Positions 1 to 37,558 of a stretch of DNA of 37,583 nt are shown piece after piece; position 1 is the stretch's first letter; each line of letters starts with the position of its first letter. The stretch lies in the sequence record NC_049344.1; one strand, written 5' to 3'. A model generated the notes under the pieces. That model had not been told where the DNA came from and did not search any database. It was given only the letters and a program-made list of their open reading frames with translations. The stretch comes from Escherichia phage 520873. Made by a program: the position numbers and the translations under genes.

Positions 1-20
1 CTGACACCCAATTTGACCTC

Positions 21-685
21 TTAATGCAGGCAGCACTGCTTAAATTTCTTACCACTACCGCACGGCAAGGATCGTTACGCCCCGGTTTCTCTTCTGCTTT
101 GATCGGTTGCTGAACAGCTTTTTCCTGCGGATGCGCCATCCAGTACGCATGTAGATCAAGCGCCGCCAGTCGAATGGCATCTACGCTCTCTTCAAACGCT
201 TCTGGCGACATCTTCTCTACCCGCTCGAAGTTTTCCTCAGTACCGTGCAGCGCTATCGCCTCCAGCGCTGGTTTTAACGAATCGGGCAATGTTGACCAGT
301 CAGAAAGTGCCACGCCCCGCATATAGCCAAAGCACCACTCCTCAACAATCGTCAGCTCGCTGCCATCAACTTCTCGCAAACCGAATAACGGCTCAAACTG
401 CTCCGGGAATTCATTCAGACGCTCTGCGGTATCGGCCATATGTTGAAAAGCCAGGTTCATAAAGCGCGTCATCTCTTTCTCTGACGCCCAGCGCGGCACA
501 TAGTCAGCCCCACCCCACACGGCAACCAGCCACTGTGCCGGTTCAATCTCTTGCGGAGAACTCAACACCGCCGTCAATAAACCGTCCAGCTCCGCCACAT
601 CAAGGATGGCGTGGTCAGTGTTGTATTTGGTCAGAATATCGTCCAGCCATTCCAACTCACTTTCGTTTAACGGTCCCGTTTTCAT
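21..685 (-). CDS. yecA: YecA (UPF0149 family, C-terminal SEC-C zinc motif); host chromosomal gene; apparent 1-bp deletion near 61-66
   Basis: Minus-strand translation from ATG (rc of 683-685) reads MKTGPLNESELEWLDDILTKYNTDHAILDV... continuously to ...KPGRNDPC, then loses frame; the expected CPCGSGKKFKQCCLH* is recovered by restoring one C (CCC read as CC). Span is 665 nt, not a multiple of 3; no intact ORF in the supplied track. Confidence 0.8.
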
Positions 686-811
686 ACGCTTTTCCTGTGG
701 ATCTCAACTCGCCAGCATCTATCTTACATGCCGGTCCGTATCAGAGATACTTTTTGAGTGGCTTTGCCGGTGATTAAAAATCAAGGAGGGTGTAACGACA
801 AGTTGCAGCAC

Positions 812-836
812 AAAAAAACCACCCGAAGGTGGTTTC
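812..836 (-). terminator. Rho-independent terminator downstream of the tRNA-Leu remnant
   Basis: On the minus strand GAAACCACC-ttcg-GGTGGTTT followed by a T7 run (plus strand A7 at 813-819). Confidence 0.5.
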
Positions 837-878
837 ACGACACTGCTTATTGCTTTGATTTTATTCTTATCTTTCCCA

Positions 879-929
879 TGGTACCCGGAGCGGACTTGAA
901 CCCGCACAGCGCGAACGCCGAGGGATTTT
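879..929 (-). other. attL core: 3' ~50 nt of a leuZ-type tRNA-Leu (anticodon loop 3' side, T-arm, acceptor CCA); 5' half absent
   Basis: rc reads TTTAAAATCCCTCGGCGTTCGCGCTGTGCGGGTTCAAGTCCGCTCCGGGTACCA, matching the 3' half of E. coli tRNA-Leu(TAA); upstream sequence is unrelated AT-rich phage DNA. One C short in the T-stem relative to the canonical gene. Confidence 0.6.
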
Positions 930-1038
930 AAAAACTATCAACCACAATTTATAAATCATAACCTTATGATTTTATTAACTTTGCAAATAGCTCTATACGA
1001 TGCCATTTGAATCTATTGTCACTTTTTATCGCCACTTT

Positions 1039-2039
1039 TTACCCTCTATTGTCAAAAGGGTTCAATTCAACTGCAGCCTCTAAATGACCTGGAGCAAAAT
1101 GCGCATAACGCATAGTCATTTTTATATCGCTATGCCCCAGTATTTTTTGCAACACAAGAATATTTCCTCCCCGCATCATAAAATGACTGGCAAACGTGTG
1201 ACGTAGCACATGAGTTAATTGCCCATCAGGAAGCTCGATCTTCGCTCTCTTAATTGCAGCGTCAAAAGCCTCATAACATGGTGAAAATAACGCTCCTCGT
1301 TTTTTAGGAAGCATAGCCTGCAATTGAGGTGAAATCGGTACAGTTCGGTTCTTCTTTCCTTTAGTTTTAACAAATGTGATTCGACCGGGCAGTACTTGAG
1401 ATTGCTTTAATCCTTCAGCTTCACTCCACCGAGCACCAGTCGCAAGCCCAATACGGACAACAACCCCCAAATCTTTATTCCGTGACTCATCACACGCAAT
1501 CAGAAGGCGTTCAATCTCATCTACATACAGAAACGCCAATTCCTTTTCTTCCTCACGAAACTTGCGAATACCAGTCAGGGGGTTTTCACCAGACCACTCC
1601 CCAAGGCGCTTCAGTTCGGCAAAAACAGCATGTAGATATGACTGCTCGCGATTAACGGTTGCTTCACTAAGTTTTTTCTTCCCCTTGGGATTCCATTCTC
1701 CTGATAACCTCCTTTCCGATAAGTAGCAAACATATTTTTGTCAAACTGAGAAGCAAATGGATCTCCCAGCCTGGAACAAATAGACTCAAGTTTGACTTTG
1801 CGCTCTGCACCAGAGGACAAGGTTTTACCGTACATCTCAAACCAACGAGCAACCAACTCAGAAAGACGAGGACCAGAACCATCTTGAAACTCGTCTCCAA
1901 CTCTACTATTCATTAAACGGCGCTCATAAGAGAGCGCCTCACTTTTTGTCGCAAACTGTTTACGAATGCGTTTTCCCGATGCCCCGTAAGGATAACATTC
2001 GCAAAGCCATTTACCTGATGGAATCTTACGAACCGACAT
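1039..2039 (-). CDS. int: P2-family tyrosine integrase; apparent frameshift near 1671-1690
   Basis: N-terminal ORF (1611..2039) and C-terminal catalytic ORF (1039..1539) align to remembered P2 Int (GKRIRKQF...; ...THVLRHTFASHFMMRGGNILVLQKILGH...MRYAHF). The frames join at a T6/C4 run; restoring one base gives a continuous ~330-aa protein. Confidence 0.85.
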
Positions 2040-2452
2040 TTTAGTTACTTATCACATAAATCAAATGCAGCCTTAGTGACATCTCCCAGATTCTTTTTTA
2101 ACCCTGGGCGGCATCATTATCTAGCCAAAAAGGATTATTGTTATCTAACGGTAACGCACCAAATGTTTTACCTTTTATTCGAGCCAAACCTGTAAGCGCA
2201 TATAACTTATTATCGTCAAAATTCATCACATAAGGATTACCATCTAGACACTGAACTGAACCTCATCAGTATTAAATGGCCATACCCCATTGAAACTCTC
2301 ACGTTCAATAGTTTTAAAAGGCATTGCGACGGCAGAAAAAGAAAACATAGATAAAAAAGTAACTAATAGTTGAACCTTTTTACTTTCATATCATTACCTC
2401 AATTTAGCTCAAGTAAGATTACAAATTAAAAAACATCCTAGAAATGGCACAC

Positions 2453-2800
2453 CTACCAAACCCCTACGCAGATAAAGAATATTATTTCTTTTGGATAAAG
2501 TCGGATTAATTCTGAAGCACGAAGTCGGACTTCTGGTAAGGTCGAATTCTCTGTGTTGCTTGATACCGATTGTTGCTCTAACCACGACAATGCAGACTGC
2601 AACTGAGAACGAGTAAGATCGTTTAAACGTCCTGTACCGAAATTGATATGGCAATACCGCAGAAGTTTTTGTCGAAGTCCACAGTCTTCACTGTTACGTA
2701 GTAATAAACTTACAAGAGTCTTACAGGCATCATGATCTTTACATCGCTCAAGCATTGCATGCAGAAAACTCTCCGCTGTTTTATATTGATTTACTGTCAT
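2453..2800 (-). CDS. Hypothetical protein in AT-rich cargo island (115 aa as called; may be a fragment of a longer frameshifted gene)
   Basis: ORF in track; AT-rich relative to prophage backbone; adjacent upstream frames (2800..3065) are open in shifted frames. Confidence 0.35.
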   Translation of the reverse strand: MTVNQYKTAESFLHAMLERCKDHDACKTLVSLLLRNSEDCGLRQKLLRYCHINFGTGRLNDLTRSQLQSALSWLEQQSVSSNTENSTLPEVRLRASELIRLYPKEIIFFICVGVW

Positions 2801-2897
2801 ATCATCAATACCAGCTACACCAATCTCCGCATGTACTTTTTGCCAAATAATAACGCTTCAGTATTGCTAGCTTCTGCAATAGCAGCAACCAAGCTAT

Positions 2898-3065
2898 TTA
2901 GCTCCTTGCGCTGAGCCTTAAGCAAAGGGCGATCGTCATCATCATTATTCGAAGGATTGCGATATTGACGGTATGAGAACCATCATATCGCCCTATCTGA
3001 ATATTCTTTTCGTGAAAATCACGCCCAGCAACGCGATTGTTTGAACCGTTTGAGTTGACGGCCAT
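2898..3065 (-). CDS. Small ORF (55 aa) with strong RBS; N-terminus repeats a motif from the repressor C-terminus
   Basis: GGGAGGTG-N3-ATG on minus strand; product MAVNSNGSNNRVAGRDFHEKNIQ...; motif NNR[IV]AGRD[YF] also ends the upstream repressor. Confidence 0.3.
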   Translation of the reverse strand: MAVNSNGSNNRVAGRDFHEKNIQIGRYDGSHTVNIAILRIMMMTIALCLRLSARS

Positions 3066-3080
3066 GTCACCTCCCTACTA

Positions 3081-3485
3081 TCACCTACCCTTAGTTTCGT
3101 TATAGTCACGCCCAGCGATACGGTTATTACCGCCAGAAATATTTAACTCACGTCCTGATGGCTGAGTTTCCTTTTCACTGGCCGCACCTTTTAAAGCCCC
3201 GATCACCGCGTTTTTCACATCTAACGAAGCTGCTCGAAAGCGAGTAATCAACTCCTGCTCATCATCGTTATAAGTTTCAGGTGAGTGAATTCCCAACACA
3301 ACATACTGAACATCAAGGCCAAAACGAGACAGCGCTGCCAAATACGCAGCATCAGGAAAGCTATCTCCTTTCTCATATCTAAGCTGAGTTAGCTTTTTGA
3401 CTCCACCAATGTCGCTCATAGCAACTTGACTAAGTCCCAATCTTTCCCTTTCCTCACGCAACCGCTGACCAATATCATTTTTCAT
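3081..3485 (-). CDS. XRE-family helix-turn-helix repressor (candidate immunity repressor)
   Basis: MKNDIGQRLREERERLGLSQVAMSDIGGVKKLTQLRYEKG... is a typical Cro/C1-type HTH; divergent from the early operon with a 74-bp intergenic region carrying palindrome GGTATC-N6-GATACC. The track ORF extends to 3530 with a GTG start. Confidence 0.6.
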   Translation of the reverse strand: MKNDIGQRLREERERLGLSQVAMSDIGGVKKLTQLRYEKGDSFPDAAYLAALSRFGLDVQYVVLGIHSPETYNDDEQELITRFRAASLDVKNAVIGALKGAASEKETQPSGRELNISGGNNRIAGRDYNETKGR

Positions 3486-3559
3486 ACAAAACCTTGACAG
3501 GTATCTTTTTTGATACCAGAATGATTTCACGAGCTATTAGATGATCACAATATATCACT

Positions 3560-3766
3560 ATGAAACAAGTTCTTCACGATACCAGATCACGCATTCCGCG
3601 TAACACCGCCACAGGTCCAAGACTGGCACTCCGGCTGTCCCTCGAGGAGCGAGCCGTCATTGATGAAATGGCAGCTAAAGAACAACGCTCATCCTCTAAC
3701 ATGGCGCGCATGATCTTCCTTCGCGGCCTAGAGCTAACCCAGAAAGAACAAAACAAATCTTCCTGA
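3560..3766 (+). CDS. Small DNA-binding regulator, ribbon-helix-helix-like (Cro/Apl-like position)
   Basis: First gene of the rightward early operon; RLSLEERAVIDEMAAKEQRSSSNMARMIFLRGLE resembles RHH/CopG-type motifs. Confidence 0.45.
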   Translation: MKQVLHDTRSRIPRNTATGPRLALRLSLEERAVIDEMAAKEQRSSSNMARMIFLRGLELTQKEQNKSS

Positions 3767-3782
3767 TCAGGAGGCTAATGGG

Positions 3783-3986
3783 ATGTCAGGTATAACCATC
3801 AATATCAATGTGAATGCCCCCTATGTATCCCTGCAGAAATATGCAGAGATAACAGGTATCCCTCTTAATACATGCAAAAAGATGTTGGCTGACGGTCGAA
3901 TTATTATCCGACCCAAACGCGCCAAAATGGAAAAGCCTGAAGTAAACCTTGTGGCGATGTTAAAAGACGCTTTGGCTAACAGCTAA
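3783..3986 (+). CDS. Cox-like excisionase/early regulator
   Basis: APYVSLQKYAEITGIPLNTCKKMLADGRIIIRP resembles remembered P2 Cox (IPYQEFAKLIGKSTGAVRRMIDKGKLPVI). Confidence 0.5.
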   Translation: MSGITININVNAPYVSLQKYAEITGIPLNTCKKMLADGRIIIRPKRAKMEKPEVNLVAMLKDALANS

Positions 3987-4007
3987 AACAATGAACAGAG
4001 CATCATC

Positions 4008-4357
4008 ATGAAAAAAACACTAATATTCCACACTCCAAATTTCGTAATGGCGTAGAACGCCACGCTAACCGTTTCGCTATCAGTACATCACGTAGCAACA
4101 CTCGCTACAGCCTGAGCGAGACGCACGCAACACCGGATGGTCACCCCGTAAAACAAATTGGCGAACACACCTGGCTGATTGAGAAAGCTGGAATCGTGGT
4201 TCACAGATGCCCACGCAATCCGTTTACCGGAAACCGCATTTTTGCCCTGAGCAGCGGCGACAATCAGTTCGGGCAAGATTTCACGTTGTACGAAGCACTA
4301 CGCACTGTTGATCGTCTACTGCGCGGACAGAATTTCATTAAACAGGCTGATTTATAA
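4008..4357 (+). CDS. Hypothetical early protein, recovered only if the A7 run at 4011-4017 is one base short
   Basis: ATG at 4008 yields a 15-aa peptide as written; adding one A gives a continuous ~116-aa ORF ending TAA at 4355-4357 (MKKNTNIPHSKFRNG...LRGQNFIKQADL). Confidence 0.3.
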
Positions 4358-4367
4358 CAGGTGCTTT

Positions 4368-4646
4368 ATGACCAAAGACCATGCTCAGGGTGTATTTATC
4401 CGCTTTATTGATTTCCGCGGTGAGCTGTTGTTGCGCGCATCAGCTATTGATGGAGTGGTTCCGGTAGATAAAAGCACGGCCACTTACATTTATCTGAACG
4501 GCACACGCCTGACCGTAGAGATTCCATATCAACCCGTATGCGAAATTATTAGCGAAGCTGAAAAAGCACGTCAGGTTAATGGCGATAAACCCTACCTCGA
4601 AATTATCTGCATGGATTCAGAAGCTGAAATTCAGAAGGCAGATTAA
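4368..4646 (+). CDS. Hypothetical early protein
   Basis: ATG at 4368 preceded by AGGTG; same frame as track ORF 4308..4646. Confidence 0.35.
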   Translation: MTKDHAQGVFIRFIDFRGELLLRASAIDGVVPVDKSTATYIYLNGTRLTVEIPYQPVCEIISEAEKARQVNGDKPYLEIICMDSEAEIQKAD

Positions 4647-4657
4647 AGGGCGTTGCG

Positions 4658-4900
4658 ATGGATAAAGAATATAAAACTCTCGTCAATAAAGCACTTGAGC
4701 GCTTTCATTTTCGCTTAAACGCATCAGGCGCTCATGCTGAACGCGCAGCCCGAGAGTCATTGACCAGAGCCATCAAGAGTCTGTACGACACGGCTTTTTA
4801 CGTTGATGACCCGGACGCGCTCGACGAGCTTTCCGTACTCGTCTGCGCCGCAGAAAACGGGGACCATATTGAGCCATATAAACTGGGGAATATTGCATGA
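4658..4900 (+). CDS. Hypothetical early protein (80 aa)
   Basis: ORF in track, tightly packed in the early operon. Confidence 0.4.
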   Translation: MDKEYKTLVNKALERFHFRLNASGAHAERAARESLTRAIKSLYDTAFYVDDPDALDELSVLVCAAENGDHIEPYKLGNIA

Positions 4901-5010
4901 GTATATTTATCTCATGGCTTGTTCTGATTATTTCGGTGGCCTGCGCTATTGGGATTATGCGAATTATTAATTCTGTAAAAAAGATTGAACGCTTTTTCAC
5001 TGAAGAATAA
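4897..5010 (+). CDS. Small hydrophobic peptide (37 aa), translationally coupled
   Basis: ATGA overlap with the previous stop; MSIFISWLVLIISVACAIGIMRII... is one predicted TM helix. Confidence 0.25.
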   Translation: MSIFISWLVLIISVACAIGIMRIINSVKKIERFFTEE

Positions 5011-5096
5011 CCGCGCAAATAAGACTCCAGGTTAAATAAGAAAATGTGAAAACAATCCGCATTCGCGGAGGTATTCGCACACGCCAAGGAGGCGTA

Positions 5097-5300
5097 ATGG
5101 CAATTAAGCATTTTCCTGTCGTTCGTTTCACCTCCAGAGGACGTGAATACGAAGTTGACGAACGCCTGATTACCACAATCGACAAACACCGTTCAGAAAA
5201 GGATGCACATCACATCTATCTCACTGACGGCACTTACTTCTGCGCCACCAACGTGGTGCAGGTGAATCTTATCAGACAGGTACAGGAGTCACGCAGATGA
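5097..5300 (+). CDS. Hypothetical early protein
   Basis: ATG at 5097 with RBS AAGGAGG (5086-5092); in frame with track ORF 5046..5300. Confidence 0.4.
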   Translation: MAIKHFPVVRFTSRGREYEVDERLITTIDKHRSEKDAHHIYLTDGTYFCATNVVQVNLIRQVQESRR

Positions 5301-5542
5301 CCATTCTGGACTACATCGCTGCCAATCCGGGTTGTAGTGGTGGAGAAATCGCCGCAGCACTGATTACCCCAACCACAACCATTAATGCGGAGTTACGCCG
5401 TCTCTGGCGCAGCGGTTCAGTCATAAGAAAAGAACGCAAAACAGGCGGTCGCTTTTCTTATCAGGTAAACCCGATGCCGTTTGGGTGTAGCAACCCACTA
5501 ACCCAGATGTTCAACCAGCTACTGAGGGAAATCAGAGCATGA
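5297..5542 (+). CDS. Hypothetical early protein, possible winged-helix DNA-binding fold
   Basis: ORF in track with ATGA overlap to the upstream gene. Confidence 0.4.
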   Translation: MTILDYIAANPGCSGGEIAAALITPTTTINAELRRLWRSGSVIRKERKTGGRFSYQVNPMPFGCSNPLTQMFNQLLREIRA

Positions 5543-5683
5543 GCACCTCCTACTGCCGGAAACCACGTCGGGCTTCAGCAGCTCATCCGGCAGCAAAACA
5601 AACTCCGTTAATTCCTGTTCCGGGCCTTTCCTGCACCTTGCGGCGGGAGGCCTTCGCACATCTGCAACAAGAGGATTGCCGCA

Positions 5684-6049
5684 ATGATTCTCGCCGAAAA
5701 CTTTTTTGATTACCTGCTGAAAACCGAGCGCGATTTTGGTATTCGCGTTCTCGACCGCTATGCAATGTATCTGAAATCACAGCCGGAACAGCAGCTCCCG
5801 GACGGACAGATTGTTATTGACGGGCGCTACATGGTTGGTAGCTGCCAGGAGGATTACACACTTTCCCGCATCGAAAGCGGCACGCCTTCCGTACTGGGTA
5901 TTTACCAGCGAACTTCATCTCTGATTGCTGATGTAATTGCTGACAGCATTCGCATAACACACCGTTATGCCAGCACAGAGAGCACCATGCAGGAAATCCA
6001 GCGGCTGGCTACCGTCTGCCACAATGCACTGAGCGGCAAGGCGGAGTAG
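5684..6049 (+). CDS. Hypothetical early protein (121 aa)
   Basis: ORF in track. Confidence 0.4.
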   Translation: MILAENFFDYLLKTERDFGIRVLDRYAMYLKSQPEQQLPDGQIVIDGRYMVGSCQEDYTLSRIESGTPSVLGIYQRTSSLIADVIADSIRITHRYASTESTMQEIQRLATVCHNALSGKAE

Positions 6050-6054
6050 TCGGC

Positions 6055-6516
6055 GTGGCAACGGAGTACATCAGAGACTGGCAACAACCACGCCATGCAG
6101 TCGGTCGCGAGGGGACGGGGGAGTCTGTCCGTCCCTCCCTTCTTTCTTCCTGGCTGGATGCCTACCGGGCAGAGAACGAGCGCCGCCAGGAAATGGCTGA
6201 TGCGGCGTTCTCCGCCGCACCGCTGGGCAATCTGATTAATAAAAGCCTGGACGCACAGGAAAAACAGGACAAAGCCATCACACTGGCAAGAGAAGCCAGA
6301 AAGCAGGCACGCGGTGCGGTGGATGAAGCAATTGCCGCACTGCGTCTGCTGCCGTCCTATCTGCGTGATCCGCTTATCCGCCATCTCTCTTTCCTGCGCA
6401 AAAACAGGAATCTGACCGCCAGAAAGGCAAAAAGAACCAGCAGGCAGAACGCTATGCGAGCGGAACCCTGCGCAAAATATTCGAACGTCTGGCCCGCACC
6501 GACCGTCGCTGGCTGA
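6055..6516 (+). CDS. Hypothetical early protein (153 aa); could instead be the 5' part of gene A if another indel is present
   Basis: ORF in track; the gene A frame is also open upstream of 6561 back to 6369. Confidence 0.3.
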   Translation: MATEYIRDWQQPRHAVGREGTGESVRPSLLSSWLDAYRAENERRQEMADAAFSAAPLGNLINKSLDAQEKQDKAITLAREARKQARGAVDEAIAALRLLPSYLRDPLIRHLSFLRKNRNLTARKAKRTSRQNAMRAEPCAKYSNVWPAPTVAG

Positions 6517-6560
6517 CTCCGGGTTATCGCTCCCTTGCCGGACGTGAACGTCTGGACGAT

Positions 6561-8875
6561 TTGCTGTACCTGCCACAGCTCAACAAGCACCAGATACAGA
6601 CGCTGGCCGTCATGACAGCGGCGATGTTCAGCAGCACCTTCGAAAAACTCTGCGATGACTTTGGCGCGATCGACGGCGAGCTGACCATGGATATAACGCT
6701 GAAGGCGTATCAGATGCTGGCCCGCATGGCGTTACATCTGCAGACAGTGCCGCCGCATTATGACGCACTGACAACAGACAAAGACCGGAAGAACGAACCG
6801 GACACGGAACTGCTGCCGGGTGCAATCCTCCGCCTGACCTGTGCGGACTGGTGGAAACGCAAATTGTGGCTTTTACGTTGCGAATGGAGAGAGGAACAAC
6901 TCCGCGCTGCCTGTCTGGTTTCCAGAAAAACATCCCCCTATCTGAGTCAGGACGCATTAAGTGAATTTCGCGCACAGCGCGAGAAAACACGCGATTTCCT
7001 GAAAAGTTTCATGCTGGAAAATGAAGACGGGTTCACGATTGATCTCGAGACGGTGTATTACGCGGGAGTAAGTAACCCGGTCCACCGTAAGGCAGAAATG
7101 ATGGCCACCATGAAGGGGCTGGAACTTCTGGCCGAAGCCCGTGGCGACAAAGCGGTATTTCTGACCGTTACCTGCCCGTCAAAATATCACGCAACAACGG
7201 AGAGCGGTCATCCGAATCCCAAATGGAACAGCACCACCATGCGCGATTCCAGCGATTACCTGGTTAACACTTTTTTAAGGCAGTCCGCAAAAAACTGAAC
7301 CGCGACGGCCTGCGCTGGTATGGCATCCGCACGGTGGAGCCACACCATGACGGCACCGTGCACTGGCACATGATGGTCTTTGCACATCCTGAAGAAATCG
7401 ACAGCATCGTGGACATCACCCGTGATATTGCCATTCGCGAAGACCGCCACGAGCTGGGCAATGACATAACTCCGCGCTTTAAGGCAGAGTACGTCGACGG
7501 TTCGAAAGGTACGCCGACCAGCTACATCGCCACCTACATCGGAAAGAACCTGGACAGCCGCGCCGTGGATGGCATTGACCCGAAAACAGGCAAGCCACGC
7601 GTTGATCACGAAACCGGAAAATCAATGGCCGAGAGCGTGGAACGCGCCATCGGCTGGGCGCGCCTTCACCGCGTCCGCCAGTTCCAGTTCTTTGGTATCC
7701 CCTCCCGTCAGGTATGGCGTGAACTCCGCCGCCTTGCCAGTCAGATGGCCCGCAGCCCGGAAGGTCCACAACGTCTGGAAAATGACGCAATGGATGCGGT
7801 ACTCGCTGCCGCTGATGCCGGGTGTTTTGCCACCTACATTGAGAAACAGGGTGGCGTACTTGTTCCACGCAAGGATTACCTGATTCGCACCGCCTACGAC
7901 CTCGCAGAAGAGCTGAACGATTACGGCGAGCAAAGCGTACAGATTTACGGGATCTGGTCGCCACAAATCGGGGAATCTTCCCGCGTGTGCACGCACCCGG
8001 ATAACTGGAAGCTGGTAAGACGTAAACCGGAAGCGGAAGACAGCGCCCGCGAAAATGGTTTTGACCTTCAGGGCGGCCCTGCCGCCCCTTGGACTCGTGG
8101 CAATAACTGTCCCCGTGTACAGGAAACGGACAACAACGGGACAGAACAGCCGGAAGAACGGCCAGCACCGTGGCCGCAGCTTCCTGACGGCGTTGACGTG
8201 AACGAATGGATGCGCTCACTGAAACGGCACGAACGCCGGGCGCTGATGCGTTCGCTTCGTGACAAACAGGCAAAAAACAGCAGCGATGAAATGCAGAACT
8301 GGACACAGAGCCGCAAACAGCCACAGCCTTTGCCTGATAACCACGAGTTACTCGCTAAAGAATGGCGGGAGTCTGCTGAATCTCTCGGCCTGCATATTGG
8401 TGAACAGCAGATGCAGCACCTGTTACGGGGCGGCAGTCTGTACGTTGACGGCAGCATCATTGCACCGCAGGGATTTGAAATTGTACGCAAACCGGATACC
8501 CGCCCGGACAGCCGAATCACGCAGCTCTGGCAACGCCTGAGCCGTAATCACGGCGTAAGCAGCACGGAGATCCGCCATAACCCGGTCGCCAGCTATCTGG
8601 AACAGCTGGGGGCATCAGACCCTGAAGCCGCCGCACGCCTGGCATCCACACTTCAGCAAGACCAGAACACCATGAAAACCCCCGTTACCGTGCTTTCTGA
8701 CATGCTGCGCGCCATCCGTGACGCAGAGCACGCACAGAGAATCAGTGAAACCACTGAACGCGCCCACCGCAAAGCAGACCTGCTGCGGGGTAGCCTGACC
8801 AGTGGAAACAAAAAACAGACAGAAACGGGACTCACAAATCCCGTAAATGAGCAAAAAACGTGCCGCGATATATGA
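6561..8875 (+). CDS. A: Replication initiation endonuclease gpA (HUH rolling-circle initiator); apparent frameshift at the T6 run 7271-7276
   Basis: Two ORFs (6561..7298, 7334..8875) totalling ~760 aa, similar to P2 gpA (761 aa); HUH motif EPHHDGTVHWHMMVF; the second frame is open back to 7268 and joins the first at aacacTTTTTTaagg. Confidence 0.8.
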
Positions 8876-8951: not shown

Positions 8952-9911
8952 ATGAAAATTTGTATCGACGACGGCTCCACCAACATCAAGCTGGCATGGA
9001 CTGAGAACGGCGAACGCCGCAACGCCATCAGCCCGAACAGCTTCAAGTCGGAATGGTCTGCGCCGTTCGGTGGCACGCAGCCCGCGAACTACATGCTTGA
9101 TGGCGTGCGCTATGGTTTTGATCCGGTCAGCGATCGCTTTATCCAGACGACCGACACGCAATACCAGTACAGCGATGTGAATGTCATTGCCATTCATCAC
9201 GCGCTGGTCAAATCAGGCATCACGCCACAGGAGGTGGATGTGGTTGTCACCCTGCCACTGAGCGAGTATTTCGACACAAACGCACAGCCGGACATGGCCA
9301 ACATCAACCGCAAAAAAGCAAACGTTATGCGCCCGGTGGAATACCAGAACGGCGAAGCATTCACTATCCGTAATGTACGGGTTATGCCTGAATCCATTCC
9401 GGCTGGCTTTAAAGCACTGGCTGACATGAGTCCGTTTGAATCCCTGCTGATTGTGGATTTAGGTGGAACCACGCTGGATGTGGCAAAGGTTCAGGGACAA
9501 CTGGCAGGTATCAGCCAGGTGTTTTGCGATCCACACGTAGGCGTTTCCCTGATGGCTGATGCAGTACTGTCGGTGATGGCCACTAACGGTATGCGTACCA
9601 GTCACCACATCGCCAATACCATTATCGAACATCGCCATGATGAAGCCTGGCTGCGCCAGCACATCCACAATGACGCGCATTACGCCAGCCTGATGGCGGT
9701 TATTCGTGAAAAGGAAGAAACACTGAAACAACGCGTGATCCGCGCGCTGGCGGGTTTTTCGGGTTACGGGCGGGTGATGGTTGTCGGTGGCGGGGCGGAG
9801 ATTGTGGCACCCGCTATCCGCGAAGCCTGCGGAGTTAATGCGACTTTCATCGCGGACGGGGTGCCACAGTTTGCTCTGGTTAATGGGCTGTACGCAATGG
9901 ACAAGGAGTAA
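8952..9911 (+). CDS. parM: ParM/StbA-family actin-like segregation ATPase
   Basis: IDDGSTNIKLAW, ISPNSFKSEW, YSDVNVIAIHHALVKSG, MPESIPAGFKAL, LLIVDLGGTTLDVAKVQGQLAGISQVF, VMVVGGGAEIV, ALVNGLYAM align block-for-block with remembered plasmid R1 ParM; RBS AAGGA upstream. Confidence 0.85.
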   Translation: MKICIDDGSTNIKLAWTENGERRNAISPNSFKSEWSAPFGGTQPANYMLDGVRYGFDPVSDRFIQTTDTQYQYSDVNVIAIHHALVKSGITPQEVDVVVTLPLSEYFDTNAQPDMANINRKKANVMRPVEYQNGEAFTIRNVRVMPESIPAGFKALADMSPFESLLIVDLGGTTLDVAKVQGQLAGISQVFCDPHVGVSLMADAVLSVMATNGMRTSHHIANTIIEHRHDEAWLRQHIHNDAHYASLMAVIREKEETLKQRVIRALAGFSGYGRVMVVGGGAEIVAPAIREACGVNATFIADGVPQFALVNGLYAMDKE

Positions 9912-9915
9912 ACCA

Positions 9916-10227
9916 ATGACGACACCAACCAGGCGGATAAGTTTCTATCTGAAGCCTGCGGCCGTCAAGAACGAAAGCGAAGCATGCGCCTGGCTGGACA
10001 GCCTTACACCGGAAGCCCGCAAAAGCGGCCAACGCGTGGCTTTTCTGGCCGGGCTGGCACTTCTGAAAATGAATCCGGCAGAGGCTTACCGACTGGCCGC
10101 ATGGGCTGATGATGAGATGTTACCTGTGACACAAATCAGCTCAAAAAAGTTTGAAGCACAGTCTGCACCAGTGGCTAAGATAACCAGCCAGATGGCTGGG
10201 AATATCCGGGCGTTATTTCCTGAGTAA
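9916..10227 (+). CDS. parR: ParR-like centromere-binding adaptor
   Basis: RRISFYLKP...LDSLTPEARKSGQRVAFLAGLALL...RALFPE parallels remembered R1 ParR (RRTIAFKLNP...LDSIPQGERSRLNRAALTAGLAL...RSLFPKE); RBS AAGGAG, starts 5 nt after the parM stop. Confidence 0.75.
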   Translation: MTTPTRRISFYLKPAAVKNESEACAWLDSLTPEARKSGQRVAFLAGLALLKMNPAEAYRLAAWADDEMLPVTQISSKKFEAQSAPVAKITSQMAGNIRALFPE

Positions 10228-10355
10228 AAGCATCTGCGCGAAAAATGCTCACGTTTATAGAAACAGTATCATTCCATTTGGCACACTTACTTCAATAATC
10301 GATCTGTTAAACAAATAGATTGTCTATTATCTATCGATTAAAACGATCAATTATC

Positions 10356-31858: not shown

Positions 31859-33812
<1,954 letters not shown>

Positions 33813-34938: not shown

Positions 34939-36036
34939 ATGACCGACACCACCATGCAATTGCTCAGTCAGAGCACAGACCCCGTGAAAATGCCGGATTT
35001 TGATATTCTCGCGGAGGGGAAAACGCTGTCCGGCGTGGCAGAGCGCCTGATGAGTCTGTCACTGACCGACAACCGGGGATTTGAAGCGGACCAGCTCACC
35101 ATCACGCTGGATGATGCGGATGGTCAGTTGCAGCTACCGCCACGGGGCGCGCGCCTGACGGTTCTCATTGGCTGGAAAGGAGAACCGCTGACAGAAAAAG
35201 GCACTTACATTGTTGATGAAATCGCTCACGAAGGTCCGCCGGACAGGCTGACTGTTTCAGCCAGAAGCGCAGATTTTCGGGATGAATTTAACGTTAAACG
35301 TGAAGTGTCCTGGCATGATGTGACCGTTGAGCGCGTGGTATCTGCTATCGCTCACCGGTACGGCCTGAAACCGCAAATCAGCGAAATGCTGATGGATATC
35401 GAAATCGACCACGCCGACCAGACCGAAGAAAGCGACATGTCCTTCCTTACGCGCATGGCGGAAATGCTGGCGCAATCACCACGGTAAAAAGCGGTAATCT
35501 GTTATTCATCATGCCAGGCGGTGGCGTGAACGCACAGGGAAAACCATTGCCATCGTTTGCCATCACACGCAGCAGCGGCGATCGCCATCAGTTTCGCATT
35601 GCTGACCGCGAGGCGTATACGGGTGTACGCGCCTACTGGCTTGATCTTAATTACGGGAAAAAGAAAAAGTCAGCGTGAAACGCCGCAAACCGAAAAAGGA
35701 GAAAAGCAGCAGCCGGGAAGGCGACTATATGGAAGGCGCGGAAGCAACGTGTTTGTGTTACGCAAGACTTATCAGAACGAGCAGGCAGCAAGACGTGCAG
35801 CGGCGGCAAAGTGGCAGCAGCTACAACGCGGAGCCGCAGCGTTCTCCATCACGCTGGCGCGTGGACGTGCAGAACTCTATCCCGAAATGCATGGCACGGT
35901 GACAGGCTTCAAAAGTGACATCGACAATCAGGACTGGATTATTGCAAAAGCCGAGCACACCATTGACAACAGCGGCTTTACCACTCAGCTTGAGCTTGAA
36001 GCAAAAATCCCGGAATGGATAGCAGAAACAGAGTAA
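34939..36036 (+). CDS. D: Tail protein gpD (late control gene D); three apparent single-base frameshifts
   Basis: Segments in three frames align in order to remembered P2 gpD (PDFDILAEG...TDNRGFEADQL...SARSADFR...; ...AITRSSGDRHQFRIADREAYTGV...; ...REGDYMEGAEA...; ...AKWQQLQRGAAAFSITLARGRAELYPE...). Breaks fall near 35465, 35670 and 35745, in short A runs where visible. Confidence 0.8.
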
Positions 36037-36230
36037 ACAACTTAGATGCATTAGCCCTGACATTTGTTAACGCGCCTACAGCAAGAATCATAACCAATCT
36101 GACAGCCTACCAAGTGTCAAAATCAGAAGTACCTTACATTAGAATATGTTAATTTGTAGCAAACAAATTTACACACAAATGATTACTGCTGAAATAGCGC
36201 CCATAAATGCCATGTCAGAGGATCCATGTT

Positions 36231-36605
36231 ATGAATATGCAACCAGCAGCCACAGTTGCTGCAGTCTGCCTTGCTGCATATTTTGCTTTACGAAATGAAC
36301 GTAAAAAGAAAGCACTTGAGATTAGAACAACTCAACTAGATCGAATATCTGAGCTAGTAAACCGAGCATCTACCAATTTGATGCAATATACAGGTAGCCT
36401 TGCCTCTATACTGGAAGCGCGCCAAAGAAGATTATCGACCGAACAAAAATTTGACATTAATGTAATTAGCAAATGGAAAGATTGCCTCGATGAGAGTGAG
36501 GTCTGGGCGATTGATATACAGCACTCAGAGCATGTCAGCACAGCCTGGAGTTTCATCGTGAAAAAGAATGGGCTGAATGGAAACAAATATTCCACCATTA
36601 CTTGA
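36231..36605 (+). CDS. Hypothetical membrane-anchored protein in the AT-rich D-ogr cargo region
   Basis: MNMQPAATVAAVCLAAYFALR... N-terminal TM helix; downstream frames stay open in shifted frames (36576..36711 and beyond). Confidence 0.4.
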   Translation: MNMQPAATVAAVCLAAYFALRNERKKKALEIRTTQLDRISELVNRASTNLMQYTGSLASILEARQRRLSTEQKFDINVISKWKDCLDESEVWAIDIQHSEHVSTAWSFIVKKNGLNGNKYSTIT

Positions 36606-37025
36606 TAAAATTGATCAATTCTTTCTCATATCTAAGCCAGGGCAACCTGTTACGTTTATAAATAGCCAAAACAAACAGCTGATGAACTACTTGATTTCTC
36701 AAGATATTTGAGAGCTCAAACAGCAGAAATTGAATCAGTACGTCGGCAGTTACTTCCCAAATGAGAAAGAATTCAGCGAGTTGACTAGCTTTAGACCTAT
36801 CACAATATTTAGCCTATTTAAATCAATAAAGAAAAATGTCATGCAATTTTTCTGTATCGGCGCTCTTAAAAATTGACGCTCTGTTGCAAGCAACCCCAGT
36901 GTTAAACTGGGGTTATTCTTGCTAAGAGACCTTTCTACGGCATCAGTAAACAAAGCGAACTATCAGTTGGAGTCTGAGTAAGTTCAGCCTAAACTAGCGA
37001 CAGTACTACGTTAAGGGAGGTCGCT

Positions 37026-37286
37026 ATGTTTCGTTGTCCGCTTTGTGGCGCATCTGCCCGTATCCGCACCAGTCGTTCGGAAAATGATTCAGATACCGTG
37101 CGGAAAAAATATTACCAGTGTAACAACCTGGAATGCGGCGTATGCTTCTCAACACTGGAGGCTTTCCATAAATTCACATCGAAACACGCCCCCGGCGTTC
37201 ACTCTTCAGAGGGCATCCCGTGGAATGAGCTGCCAGCTTCGCACAGGGGAAACAACCAAATGAGTTTGCCCTTACCTCAGAATTAA
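37026..37286 (+). CDS. ogr: Ogr/Delta-family zinc-finger late transcription activator
   Basis: MFRCPLCGASARIRTSR...YYQCNNLECGVCF matches the remembered P2 Ogr Cys pattern (MFHCPLC...ARTSR...HQCQNVNCSATF); RBS AAGGGAGG. Confidence 0.75.
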   Translation: MFRCPLCGASARIRTSRSENDSDTVRKKYYQCNNLECGVCFSTLEAFHKFTSKHAPGVHSSEGIPWNELPASHRGNNQMSLPLPQN

Positions 37287-37375
37287 CAGGCTGAATTGCC
37301 GGAGTAACAAAAAAGCGATAGATTACGCGCGGGTGCCTTTCGGCTGATGGCTGGAGGAATACCCGAAGGCCAGAT

Positions 37376-37558
37376 GTGGAAAGGCCCCGGAAAACATTTC
37401 TGTTTAACCGAGGCCCTGACCATCTAACCTTAGCAAGTGATAGGTTAGCGCCTCCCCAAAAAAGGAGCAAGCGCTATGTCGCAAAAATCGCTTATGGCCA
37501 TCACGTTCTGCGTGACGGTAATCCTCATCATCTGGATGCTGCACGGTTCGCTGTGTGA
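37376..37558 (+). CDS. Possible mok-like overlapping reading frame of a hok locus
   Basis: ORF overlapping the hok-like ORF in another frame, as in hok/mok/sok loci. Confidence 0.3.
   Translation: MERPRKTFLFNRGPDHLTLASDRLAPPQKRSKRYVAKIAYGHHVLRDGNPHHLDAARFAV

Follow-up and report, generated by a model that had tools for sequence, protein, structure and literature searches.

The kilobase of AT-rich DNA between the integrase and repressor genes of this P2-like prophage (positions 2040-3080 of the window, by which we mean the whole stretch of 37,583 nucleotides that was analysed) is best explained as two operon genes that are broken by errors in the sequence. In this explanation, which we hold with moderate confidence, one gene encodes a Flk_N protein that would serve as a dedicated partner of the repressor through a terminal motif, and the other encodes a DUF2511 protein carried as cargo. 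The last 20 residues of the repressor are mirrored by the first 20 of the predicted membrane protein in all related phages examined, and these matched termini point to an undescribed mode of prophage repressor control. The features on which the argument draws are as follows.

1039..2039, minus strand: tyrosine integrase of 333 aa, the last gene of the operon (Int_N and Phage_integrase Pfam domains)
2045..2389, minus strand: YebY/DUF2511 gene of 115 aa (PF10709), with a predicted secreted product, in a variable cargo slot
2419..3065, minus strand: gene for the Flk_N protein of 216 aa, predicted to be tail-anchored in the inner membrane (phrog_5825, Flk_N homologues, AF2)
2425..2494, minus strand: predicted C-terminal transmembrane anchor of the Flk_N protein, residues 192-215, IIFFICVGGLVGGAISRMFFNL (AF2 helix 192-215)
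2543..2931, minus strand: Flk_N core, residues 46-175, two tandem small helical bundles
3009..3059, minus strand: N-terminal motif of the Flk_N protein, VNSNGSNNRVAGRDFHE, residues 3-19, mirroring the repressor tail
3081..3485, minus strand: prophage repressor of 134 aa, the first gene of the lysogenic operon (HTH, PHROG repressor families)
3096..3146, minus strand: repressor tail motif, LNISGGNNRIAGRDYNE, residues 114-130, followed by the basic end TKGR
3783..3986, rightward: Cox-like gene (phrog_575)

The AT-richness that an earlier note had remarked on is borne out, as the GC content is 0.387 in 2040-3080 and 0.520 over the window as a whole, and just 0.4% of 1041-bp windows fall below the value of the kilobase. 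The minimum, 0.352, lies over the DUF2511 gene. The integrase gene (0.443), the repressor gene (0.449) and the early region to ~5200 (0.462) are all below the structural genes (0.532), so that the contrast is softer than the earlier term "island" implies. The location given for the kilobase, between the integrase and the HTH repressor, is also correct, as is the comparison with P2: int adjoins C in P2, and the P2-like phage of the window has added low-GC DNA between int and the repressor gene. The prophage is inserted at leuZ, beside yecA. Its lysogeny module is that of a P2-like phage, with the integrase and repressor leftward, the Cox-like gene rightward, and structural and replication genes of the P2 type; the matching reference prophage encodes a portal, a terminase, a GPO scaffold, a P2-family capsid, a GpA-type replication endonuclease and ogr. 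An IS100 element is inserted in the tail sheath gene, and the prophage is probably defective. No nucleotide match was found in the phage collection. A non-coding RNA or tRNA in the region was ruled out, since Rfam gave no match at the gathering threshold over positions 1-6000 and no tRNA is present in the window.

Comparison of the window with E. coli 510016 (NZ_CP025851.1) identifies single bases missing after 2105, 2253, 2376, 2449, 2460, 2851 and 2953. The suggestion that one gene of ~200 aa had been fragmented by indels is thus right about the breaks, all seven of which are confirmed, and wrong about the number of genes and the nature of the damage. The references show two genes in place of a single split one: the first three deletions interrupt the DUF2511 gene (2045..2389, 115 aa), which is intact as WP_001739427.1, and the other four interrupt the Flk_N gene (2419..3065, 216 aa), which is intact as WP_001592636.1 in NZ_CP025851.1. 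The stretch noted as open, 2453..3065, is the larger gene minus its final 34 bases. By alignment of the whole 37.6 kb with NZ_CP025851.1, the frame breaks are sequencing or assembly errors and not gene decay, because the 29 one-base deletions are of the homopolymer type, are accompanied by only 1 substitution, and affect host genes as well. Nearly all of the deletions fall within homopolymer runs and they cluster at both ends of the window; they are also found in yecA, in the leuZ remnant, in intergenic DNA and in the integrase gene, which is broken by a deletion after 1715 and intact in the references. The deletions are shared by none of the E. coli records in the collection, of which the best match is 99.7% identical and 9 bases longer than the query. 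At least 80% of a 2.6-kb query is covered by 506 E. coli records, and both genes are intact in the annotated records examined. That the frameshifts are genuine, and both genes functionless pseudogenes in decaying prophage DNA of the source strain, is highly improbable. Seven frameshifts within 1 kb, and a probably defective prophage with IS100 in its tail sheath gene, would suit such decay; however, natural decay yields substitutions far in excess of indels, and insertions alongside deletions, and it is the ratio of 29 deletions to 1 substitution, together with their distribution, on which real pseudogenes were rejected. The practical lesson is that frameshifts clustered in AT-rich DNA can be artefacts of sequencing.

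With the frames restored, the four genes are, by their arrangement, one leftward operon that runs from the repressor gene through the Flk_N gene and the DUF2511 gene to the integrase. The gaps between them are short (15, 29 and 5 nt, the last separating the DUF2511 stop from the integrase start) and accompanied by Shine-Dalgarno sequences, of which GGAGGTG lies upstream of the Flk_N gene, 15 nt from the repressor stop. No terminator-like site is present on the minus strand from the repressor gene to int, and the one promoter-like match in that interval is weak (9/12) and lies inside the DUF2511 gene. A classical moron with its own promoter and terminator was rejected on the same two observations.

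The minus-strand ORFs had been described as of unknown function, which applies fully to neither, one belonging to YebY/DUF2511, a family with a solved structure, and the other having the Pfam domain Flk_N. The smaller product matches PF10709 with 25.9 bits (cut-off 21), its residues 28-113 aligning with positions 2-87 of the 87-position profile, and belongs to phrog_2950 (E 1e-39). It shares with YebY of the E. coli AZY operon this Pfam match, a putative signal peptide (a hydrophobic N-terminal leader ending in AVA) and residues Trp37, Cys48 and Cys113; in YebY, Trp37 is conserved, and Cys48 and Cys113 are conserved and disulfide-bonded (PMC8689200). The similarity to YebY is otherwise distant (E 0.007 against structure 7N0J) and the setting is different, as the copC and copD neighbours of the AZY-type context are absent and the gene is flanked instead by the Flk_N gene and the prophage integrase. 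About half of the YebY/DUF2511 family is found without the AZY context, and Hadley et al. had already recorded that Enterobacteriaceae carry homologues of yebY flanked by a XerD-type recombinase and a phage CI repressor (PMC8689200).

Among 87 related loci, the stop of the Flk_N gene and the start of int are 323 to 1875 nt apart. At least eight unrelated gene families occupy this slot in related prophages, including DUF2511, a BRCT-WYL protein, an acidic 108-aa protein, secreted or membrane proteins, and a TerB/BRCT protein resembling the defence candidate PDC-S48. The earlier label "cargo island" therefore fits the promoter-distal part of the kilobase, which is an exchangeable slot, and does not extend to the Flk_N gene; judged by these loci, only the DUF2511 gene is cargo, accounting for ~380 bp of the "island". 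PADLOC-DB 2.0 gave no match for the DUF2511 or the Flk_N protein at E up to 1, and a known defence system was ruled out on this basis. As exchangeable cargo expressed in the lysogen, the DUF2511 protein would reach the periplasm by export and may, to judge by its relative MlbQ from Microbispora, protect the envelope.

The larger product is a member of phrog_5825 (E 1e-100), and its homologues at 55-98% identity carry the precomputed domain PF27202 (Flk_N). Its AF2 model has a mean pLDDT of 85.6 and consists of a low-confidence or disordered segment (residues 1-45), the core of two small helical bundles, and the C-terminal helix. The hydrophobic C-terminus is conserved in the Flk_N family and there is no signal peptide, and we infer from the model that the protein faces the cytoplasm, held in the inner membrane by its C-terminal anchor. 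The N-terminal motif is likewise conserved across the short Flk_N family, although an alignment of all the diverse Flk_N proteins contained no stretch sufficiently conserved for retrieving loci. No solved structure was found for the protein by sequence, and its fold matches only small helical bundles; the resemblance of the modelled fold to Red-beta, NinB and ORF6C is a lead and not homology. A tblastn search of isolated phages gave no close homologue, only weak matches in Ralstonia, and a profile scan places gp12 of Burkholderia phage KS10 in the same PHROG family. The protein family is especially abundant in Klebsiella pneumoniae, where one cluster is found on 754 contigs.

The closest named relative is Flk (Fluke, RflH) of Salmonella and E. 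coli, which restrains the specificity switch of flagellar type III secretion. Both proteins contain the helical Flk_N domain, and the phage protein is predicted to match Flk in facing the cytoplasm and in being anchored to the membrane by its C-terminus. A two-hybrid assay showed an interaction of Flk with the cytoplasmic domain of FlhA (PMC13344023). The phage protein could by likeness act on the flagellar type III export gate (FlhA) and alter the flagella or motility of the lysogen, which we consider very unlikely. Flk has ~333 residues in two tandem modules, whereas the phage protein has 216 residues and one module. The match to the NCBIfam Flk family (positions 19-152, E 4e-16) is far under the equivalog cut-off of NF007987, with 59.3 bits against 353 and only model positions 19-152 of 339 aligned. 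The phage gene, unlike that of Flk, lies in a prophage immunity operon, and its family is very common in K. pneumoniae, a non-flagellate species. Moreover, an action on FlhA would leave unexplained the N-terminal motif that the phage protein has in common with the repressor and that Flk lacks.

The repressor gene is intact in the window, with its true start at the ATG at 3485. The protein consists of an XRE-type HTH (residues 5-64, with HTH_31/HTH_3 Pfam matches under the curated cut-offs), two more helices (residues 74-105) and a disordered C-terminal tail (residues 105-134), and in the AF2 model pLDDT exceeds 80 over residues 11-100 and drops under 50 in the tail. By tblastn, the tail is kept in repressors that are only 33-55% identical overall to that of the window. 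Residues 114-130 of the repressor align with residues 3-19 of the Flk_N protein, with 10 of 17 positions identical and a BLOSUM62 score of 62.

This pairing is general. The Flk_N gene lies directly downstream of the repressor gene in 84 of 84 P2-like loci where both are readable, with repressors that are 33 to 100% identical overall to that of the window; the repressor ends in ...SG.GNR[IV]AGRD[YF]NE.KK and the Flk_N protein starts with M.VNS.G..NR.AGRDF.EN. Across 13 diverse P2-like and Mu-like phages, the Flk_N or motif-bearing gene adjoins the repressor gene or is one gene further away; in one locus, L098, an 88-aa gene lies between the two. In the distant P2-like and Mu-like phages both ends switch class together, examples being FNG..GQFA..I[IV]N, [FV].G.VGQ.V.G.V, SG.GI.QV and QIAG..IY. 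All 13 pairs have a matched motif, although the match of L099 is weak (score 21, near background). The scores of the 13 cognate pairs sum to 601, compared to 350 ± 44 for shuffled pairs, and none of 200,000 permutations reaches 601; the repressor segment just upstream of the tail, used as a control, gives no signal. The co-variation is confined to the level of classes, since within class I single positions, such as the Y/F after GRD, are not tracked between the partners. In its annotated form, gp12 of KS10 lacks an obvious membrane anchor.

Because the Flk_N gene is a constant neighbour of the repressor gene and the two have a co-varying motif in common, it belongs, on this comparison of loci, to the immunity module and is not cargo, contrary to what was first proposed for a gene of ~200 aa. 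ORF20 of phage B3 retains the motif and membrane segments without Flk_N, which argues that the link is the motif and not the globular domain. The one tail-less repressor homologue, a single locus, has neither a Flk_N nor a motif-bearing neighbour. About half of the identical motif residues use different codons in the two genes, which suggests that the match is maintained at the protein level; gene conversion as its source was judged unlikely from these synonymous differences. Old gene-conversion events followed by synonymous drift are a possible source of matching. No natural fusion of the repressor and Flk_N proteins occurs among the representatives.

The Flk_N protein could instead be an exclusion or conversion protein unrelated to repressor control, in the manner of lambda rexAB or sie, with the motif likeness a relic of duplication at the junction. 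The gene lies in the repressor operon, in the classic rex-type position, its product is membrane-anchored in the AF2 prediction, the DNA is low in GC, and the adjoining slot holds varied candidate defence or conversion genes. We nevertheless find this improbable, because a relic would decay or stay ancestral, whereas the motif copies diverge between lineages and remain alike within pairs, with synonymous differences between them. The Flk_N gene is also conserved while the adjacent cargo turns over, and it has no PADLOC match.

Another possibility, which we regard as unlikely though worth weighing, is that the tail and the N-terminus do not contact each other and that both are read by a third party, such as a protease (ClpXP, Lon or FtsH), a chaperone or a phage protein, the membrane protein being a decoy or adaptor that tunes repressor turnover. 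The motifs are at extreme disordered termini, as degrons are, and most lineages have basic residues (KK, KGR, KKK) at the very end of the repressor tail. These endings recall Mu, in which MuA has a basic C-terminal ClpX tag and the C-terminus of the Mu repressor acts in ClpXP-dependent derepression. The occurrence of the class I motif in both Pseudomonas phage B3 and enterobacterial prophages also fits a conserved host receptor. However, different motif classes are found within a single host genus, Pectobacterium, which a single conserved host receptor does not predict; as the partners always match, several receptors would be needed. N- and C-terminal degrons of one protease are not normally identical sequences, and no candidate receptor gene is conserved beside the pair.

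We favour a physical link between the repressor and the membrane protein, inferred from the shared motif and possibly similar to that of amyloid signalling pairs. The disordered N-terminal motif of the Flk_N protein would pair directly, strand against strand, with the disordered C-terminal tail of the repressor and keep a fraction of the repressor at the membrane. The Flk_N protein could then set or switch the amount of free repressor, acting as a built-in anti-repressor or co-factor that is anchored in the membrane and translated from the transcript of the repressor itself, and matching motif classes would keep co-resident prophages from cross-talk. Two features sit poorly with this model: charged residues abound in the class I motif, as they do not usually in the core of a beta-zipper, and production of both proteins from one transcript would seem to make a simple stoichiometric anti-repressor wasteful unless it is regulated post-translationally.

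The module matches in 599 of 5426 complete E. coli genomes (~1 in 10), including O26, O103 and other EHEC strains, and has frequent relatives in Klebsiella, Enterobacter, Serratia and Salmonella. Exit from lysogeny is poorly understood in P2-like and many Mu-like prophages, and P2 is classically non-inducible. A membrane-anchored protein tied to the repressor by terminal motifs that co-evolve offers a concrete candidate for such a control input, open to testing, and, if the link is real, matched terminal motifs in neighbouring genes are used beyond immune cell-death systems. No description of the pair was found in the literature on Flk-like prophage proteins, repressor-linked amyloid or membrane anti-repressors.

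The nearest parallel to the motif arrangement is found in amyloid signalling, where motif pairs are known from fungal HET-s/NWD2, from bacterial BASS1-10 and, as BASS11, from Bab/Agp of E. coli, a pair that also occurs in prophages, at hotspots (bioRxiv 10.1101/2024.11.07.622273; 10.1101/2020.01.06.895854). As here, a motif of ~20 residues at the C-terminus of one protein matches the N-terminus of the neighbouring gene product, diverging between lineages and matched within pairs. The motifs are also alike in being disordered as monomers and rich in G/N/Q with alternating hydrophobics, especially in the FHG.VGQ.V.G.V and FNG..GQFAG..IIN classes; the class I motif is highly charged, unlike amyloid signalling motifs. 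The known pairs join a pore-forming Bell/HeLo effector to an NLR or other immune sensor, whereas an XRE HTH repressor is paired here with a tail-anchored Flk_N protein. The amyloid-motif papers searched mention no HTH or repressor partners, and the Pfam matches at E up to 1 include no amyloid-motif family. That the repressor tail and the Flk_N N-terminus form a prion-like pair (amyloid or beta-arch) is a speculative proposal, and probably not the correct one. It would work through a membrane-proximal signal that clusters the Flk_N protein, so that its N-terminal motifs fold and template the repressor tails into an aggregate, removing the repressor from its operators. If true, it would provide a RecA-independent, self-propagating switch for prophage induction or its prevention, with the motif classes as private channels that insulate co-resident prophages, and would extend amyloid signalling from cell-death effectors to viral transcriptional control.

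Two phage systems are comparable in function. Lambda cI-rexA-rexB resembles the present operon in having accessory genes, one with a membrane product, co-transcribed with the repressor gene in the lysogen, and RexA is reported to influence the lysogenic-lytic switch. There is, however, no relation in sequence or fold, the Rex system has two proteins where the present one has a single protein, and Rex has no terminal motif in common with CI. The anti-repressors P22 Ant, 186 Tum, Gifsy GfoA/GfhA and VP882 Qtip bind a repressor and remove it from DNA, as is proposed here, and there is a weak resemblance between the subdomains of Flk_N and the ORF6C-like modules at the C-terminus of Ant and Bro-N proteins. 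Those anti-repressors are soluble and made only on induction, under LexA or quorum control; the Flk_N protein, in contrast, is predicted to be membrane-anchored, is encoded on the repressor's own transcript, and would recognise its target through a duplicated terminal motif.

The region under study (window 2040–3080) separates the integrase from the XRE-type HTH repressor of a P2-like prophage, which the window contains together with its left host flank. Over its full length, the window aligns to E. coli 510016 (NZ_CP025851.1) with 99.92% identity. In that strain, the prophage site has yecA on one side and the leuZ-cysT-glyW tRNA genes on the other, and the gene set consists of P2-type portal, terminase, scaffold, capsid and tail genes, GpA-type replication and ogr. 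The earlier note suspected a single ~200-aa gene between integrase and repressor; intact references have two genes there instead, arranged as follows.

1039..2039, minus strand: integrase (int)
2045..2389, minus strand: promoter-distal DUF2511 gene, 115 aa with a hydrophobic leader
2419..3065, minus strand: Flk_N gene, 216 aa
3081..3485, minus strand: XRE-type HTH repressor

The minus-strand ORFs of the region are broken in the window, and the indels proposed to fragment them are present, but we read them as sequencing or assembly errors. Base-by-base comparison with E. coli 510016 over 37.6 kb gave 29 single-base deletions, nearly all in same-base runs, one substitution and no insertions, whereas natural decay would be expected to leave far more substitutions than indels. 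Seven of the deletions fall in 2040–3080 (after window positions 2105, 2253, 2376, 2449, 2460, 2851 and 2953), and yecA, the leuZ remnant and int are also hit. None of the complete E. coli genomes in the collection has these deletions; the best match (99.7% identity) is to a record that exceeds the query by 9 bases. Their distribution, with 16 in window 1–7300, 12 in the last 2.1 kb (35400–37400) and one in the 28 kb between, where the single substitution also lies, looks like uneven assembly polishing. ORF calls close to the window ends are unreliable.

Several other features of the prophage were observed. A copy of the 3′ part of leuZ (tRNA-Leu) occupies window 810–932. Given its 99% match to the intact leuZ region at the opposite prophage end, this copy is one of the two attachment sites that flank the prophage; ARAGORN found no tRNA in the window. 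In the matching reference prophage (L003), IS100 (istA/istB) splits the tail sheath gene (L003 32018–33819, window ~31960–33760), and the window alignment runs gap-free across it. With this gene interrupted, the prophage can probably not form particles. Directly after the replication endonuclease gene come genes for a ParM-like segregation ATPase and for partition/stability (L003 9024–10299, window ~8970–10240), and close to the right end there is a Hok/Gef toxin gene; such maintenance functions, here in an integrated phage, are of the plasmid type. On the plus strand, a 68-aa ORF (window 3560..3766) has a match to phrog_3431, a family of Arc-like repressors (E 1e-28), and a Cox-like gene (phrog_575, 3783..3986) comes next. 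RefSeq records leave this ORF unannotated and call an opposite-strand 46-aa ORF (WP_001673482.1) in its place; the lytic-side switch gene has probably been mis-annotated here.

The low-GC insert that the earlier note described is real, with a GC content of 0.387 compared to 0.520 for the whole window and lower values in only 0.4% of equally long windows. The minimum (0.352) lies over the DUF2511 gene. As int, the repressor and the early genes (0.44–0.46) are also below the structural genes (0.53), the region marks the lowest point of a wider early region of low GC.

The 115-aa protein matches Pfam DUF2511 over the gathering score, and its Trp37, Cys48 and Cys113 coincide exactly with the conserved and disulfide-bonded positions of periplasmic YebY (PMC8689200). 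This gene is an ordinary moron from a known family. Its location was noted previously, as yebY homologues with a XerD-type recombinase on one side and a phage CI repressor on the other have already been remarked on in Enterobacteriaceae (PMC8689200). The main interest lies in the Flk_N gene rather than the DUF2511 gene, and the Flk_N/repressor pair is directly testable. The 216-aa protein belongs to phrog_5825, a family without assigned function. It aligns to positions 19–152 of the NCBIfam model of the flagellar regulator Flk, far under the equivalog cut-off, and its homologues bear Pfam PF27202 (Flk_N). The AlphaFold2 model (mean pLDDT 85.6) consists of a disordered segment (residues 1–45), a very confident helical core (residues 46–175) and a C-terminal hydrophobic helix (residues 192–215).

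The Flk_N gene encodes a conserved, predicted membrane-anchored protein that mirrors the repressor tail, is the proposed partner of the repressor and is, as far as we could find, undescribed; literature searches returned no description of a repressor paired with a membrane protein. The end of the repressor (…ELNISGGNNRIAGRDYNETKGR) resembles the start of the Flk_N protein (MAVNSNGSNNRVAGRDFHEKN…), with 10 of 17 residues identical. In all 84 related loci with both genes readable, the repressor ends in …SG.GNR[IV]AGRD[YF]NE.KK and the next protein starts with M.VNS.G..NR.AGRDF.EN. This pairing is kept despite identities of 33–100% to the window's repressor and repressor ORFs of 127–203 aa as called. 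For the monomers, disorder is predicted at repressor residues 105–134 and Flk_N residues 1–45.

Among 1.84 billion representative proteins searched, relatives of the Flk_N protein made up only 88 clusters, namely short tail-anchored forms and the true Flk proteins, which are longer. The N-terminal motif, or some variant of it, occurs in most of the short forms and is absent from the Flk proteins. We examined the contexts of ten distant short forms and of two isolated phages reached via the repressor. An HTH repressor lies just upstream in all ten short-form contexts, and the upstream repressor tail carries the same motif variant as the partner N-terminus.

Repressor tail and partner N-terminus of motif pairs
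QIFNGDISGQFAGNQIIN and QEFNGTAQGQFSSRDIIN
QVFHGKVGQSIAGNV and QVFREDVGQAVAGDL
VVHGDVGQTVKGNV and IIHGDVGIVAEGDV
SGSGITQVGS and SGFGIIQVAG (Burkholderia phage KS10 gp13 and gp12)
GEGQIAGGNIY and TAEQIAGRDIY (Gilliamella)

Several of the carriers of such pairs are transposable phages of the Mu-like type. In Pseudomonas phage B3 (locus L100, 2444–3447), repressor ORF18 ends in …ISVTGDGNRTAGRDFHERKE and the next protein, ORF20, which has membrane segments and no Flk_N domain, starts with NIEVTGSNNIVAGRDFIEN. The KS10 pair is located at 2498–3556 of locus L101; no membrane anchor is obvious in the annotated form of gp12. Both B3 and KS10 are isolated, cultivable Mu-like phages with the motif pairing and are possible experimental models.

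Summed over 13 diverse pairs, the local-alignment scores of tail and N-terminus came to 601 for cognate partners compared to 350 ± 44 for shuffled ones, and none of 200,000 permutations reached 601; the repressor segment directly upstream of the tail, as a control, scored at background. At six loci, about half of the identical motif residues are encoded by different codons, which argues that the likeness is held at the protein level and does not stem from recent gene conversion. The majority of repressor homologues have a tail of one of these motif classes. In the single case of a tail-less homologue, from another E. coli P2-like prophage, other genes follow and none encodes a motif-bearing protein.

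Two further arrangements of the motif were seen. A Salmonella enterica contig (L104, 767–2801) has three tandem HTH repressor paralogues followed by one Flk_N gene; of these paralogues, two end in complete class I tails (SG.GNR[IV]AGRD type) and the third in a degenerate one, with AVGRDYH encoded in another frame of the spacer after it, as if the tail had been frameshifted. A 283-aa Flk_N-family protein (P0175) has, besides the N-terminal motif, motif-like repeats further along, in the C-terminal half (…SSTAAGRDVIDQ…, …NSIAVGGDLFIG…), a hint that a single protein can contain the motif repeatedly.

Since the termini differ between lineages and are alike within pairs, the simplest explanation is that they have been selected to recognise each other. 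B3 retains the motif and the membrane segments with the globular domain replaced, which points to the motif, not a groove in the Flk_N core, as the link. One conserved host receptor is harder to reconcile with the differing motif classes within Pectobacterium than is pairing between partners. By such pairing of both motifs, the tail-anchored Flk_N protein would bind the repressor and thereby could control the amount of free repressor. Each step from matching motifs to protein binding to changed repressor activity is an inference, and so are the direction of the effect and its signal.

Comparison with seven loci from other genera (Rosenbergiella, Mixta, Izhakiella, Enterobacter, Erwinia and Symbiopectobacterium) and 80 viral contigs gave a constant gene order of repressor, Flk_N gene, variable stretch and int, with 323 to 1875 nt from the Flk_N stop to the int start. 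The variable stretch holds at least 8 unrelated families, among them DUF2511 (45 loci, mostly of the E. coli lineage), a BRCT and WYL-like protein, a TerB/BRCT protein resembling the defence candidate PDC-S48, an acidic 108-aa protein, a zinc-finger-like protein, and secreted or membrane proteins. Thus, the proposal of a cargo island holds for the DUF2511 gene, whose slot is variously occupied, but not for the Flk_N gene, which is a fixed member of the immunity region. Varied cargo directly 3′ of the Flk_N gene is also present in Mu-like phages: one contig (L097, 3490–4362) has a TIR-domain protein (PF13676) two genes 3′ of it and another (L094) a D12 methyltransferase in the equivalent downstream place.

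The gaps between the genes are short (15 nt from the repressor stop to Flk_N, 29 nt from Flk_N to DUF2511 and 5 nt from DUF2511 to int), Shine-Dalgarno sequences are present, and between these genes we found no minus-strand terminator-like site and only one weak promoter-like match. From these features, we infer co-transcription of the Flk_N and DUF2511 genes with the repressor in the lysogen. At window 3066–3083, the repressor and Flk_N genes of this lineage are in frame, with three consecutive stops (TGA TAG TAG) followed by GGA GGT GAC ATG; this common frame is not conserved, the spacing at one comparison locus (L004) being out of frame.

Flk shares a domain and topology with the 216-aa protein, which nevertheless fails the equivalog test, and a flagellar role is unlikely as the protein is common in Klebsiella. 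The likeness to lambda rexAB and known anti-repressors is one of functional analogy only. Amyloid signalling pairs, described for bacterial Bell-domain/NLR proteins (10.1101/2020.01.06.895854) and experimentally characterised for the Bab/Agp abortive-infection pair in prophage hotspots of E. coli (10.1101/2024.11.07.622273), are similar in that a disordered, G/N/Q-rich C-terminal motif of one product equals the N-terminal motif of the next. Neither of these papers mentions repressor partners, and the repressor/Flk_N motif matched no known amyloid-motif profile in Pfam. In contrast to the amyloid pairs, the repressor and the Flk_N protein are very unlike partners, and the class I motif is highly charged. 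The repressor/Flk_N pair may perhaps work like the amyloid signalling pairs, by analogy, without being a member of that group.
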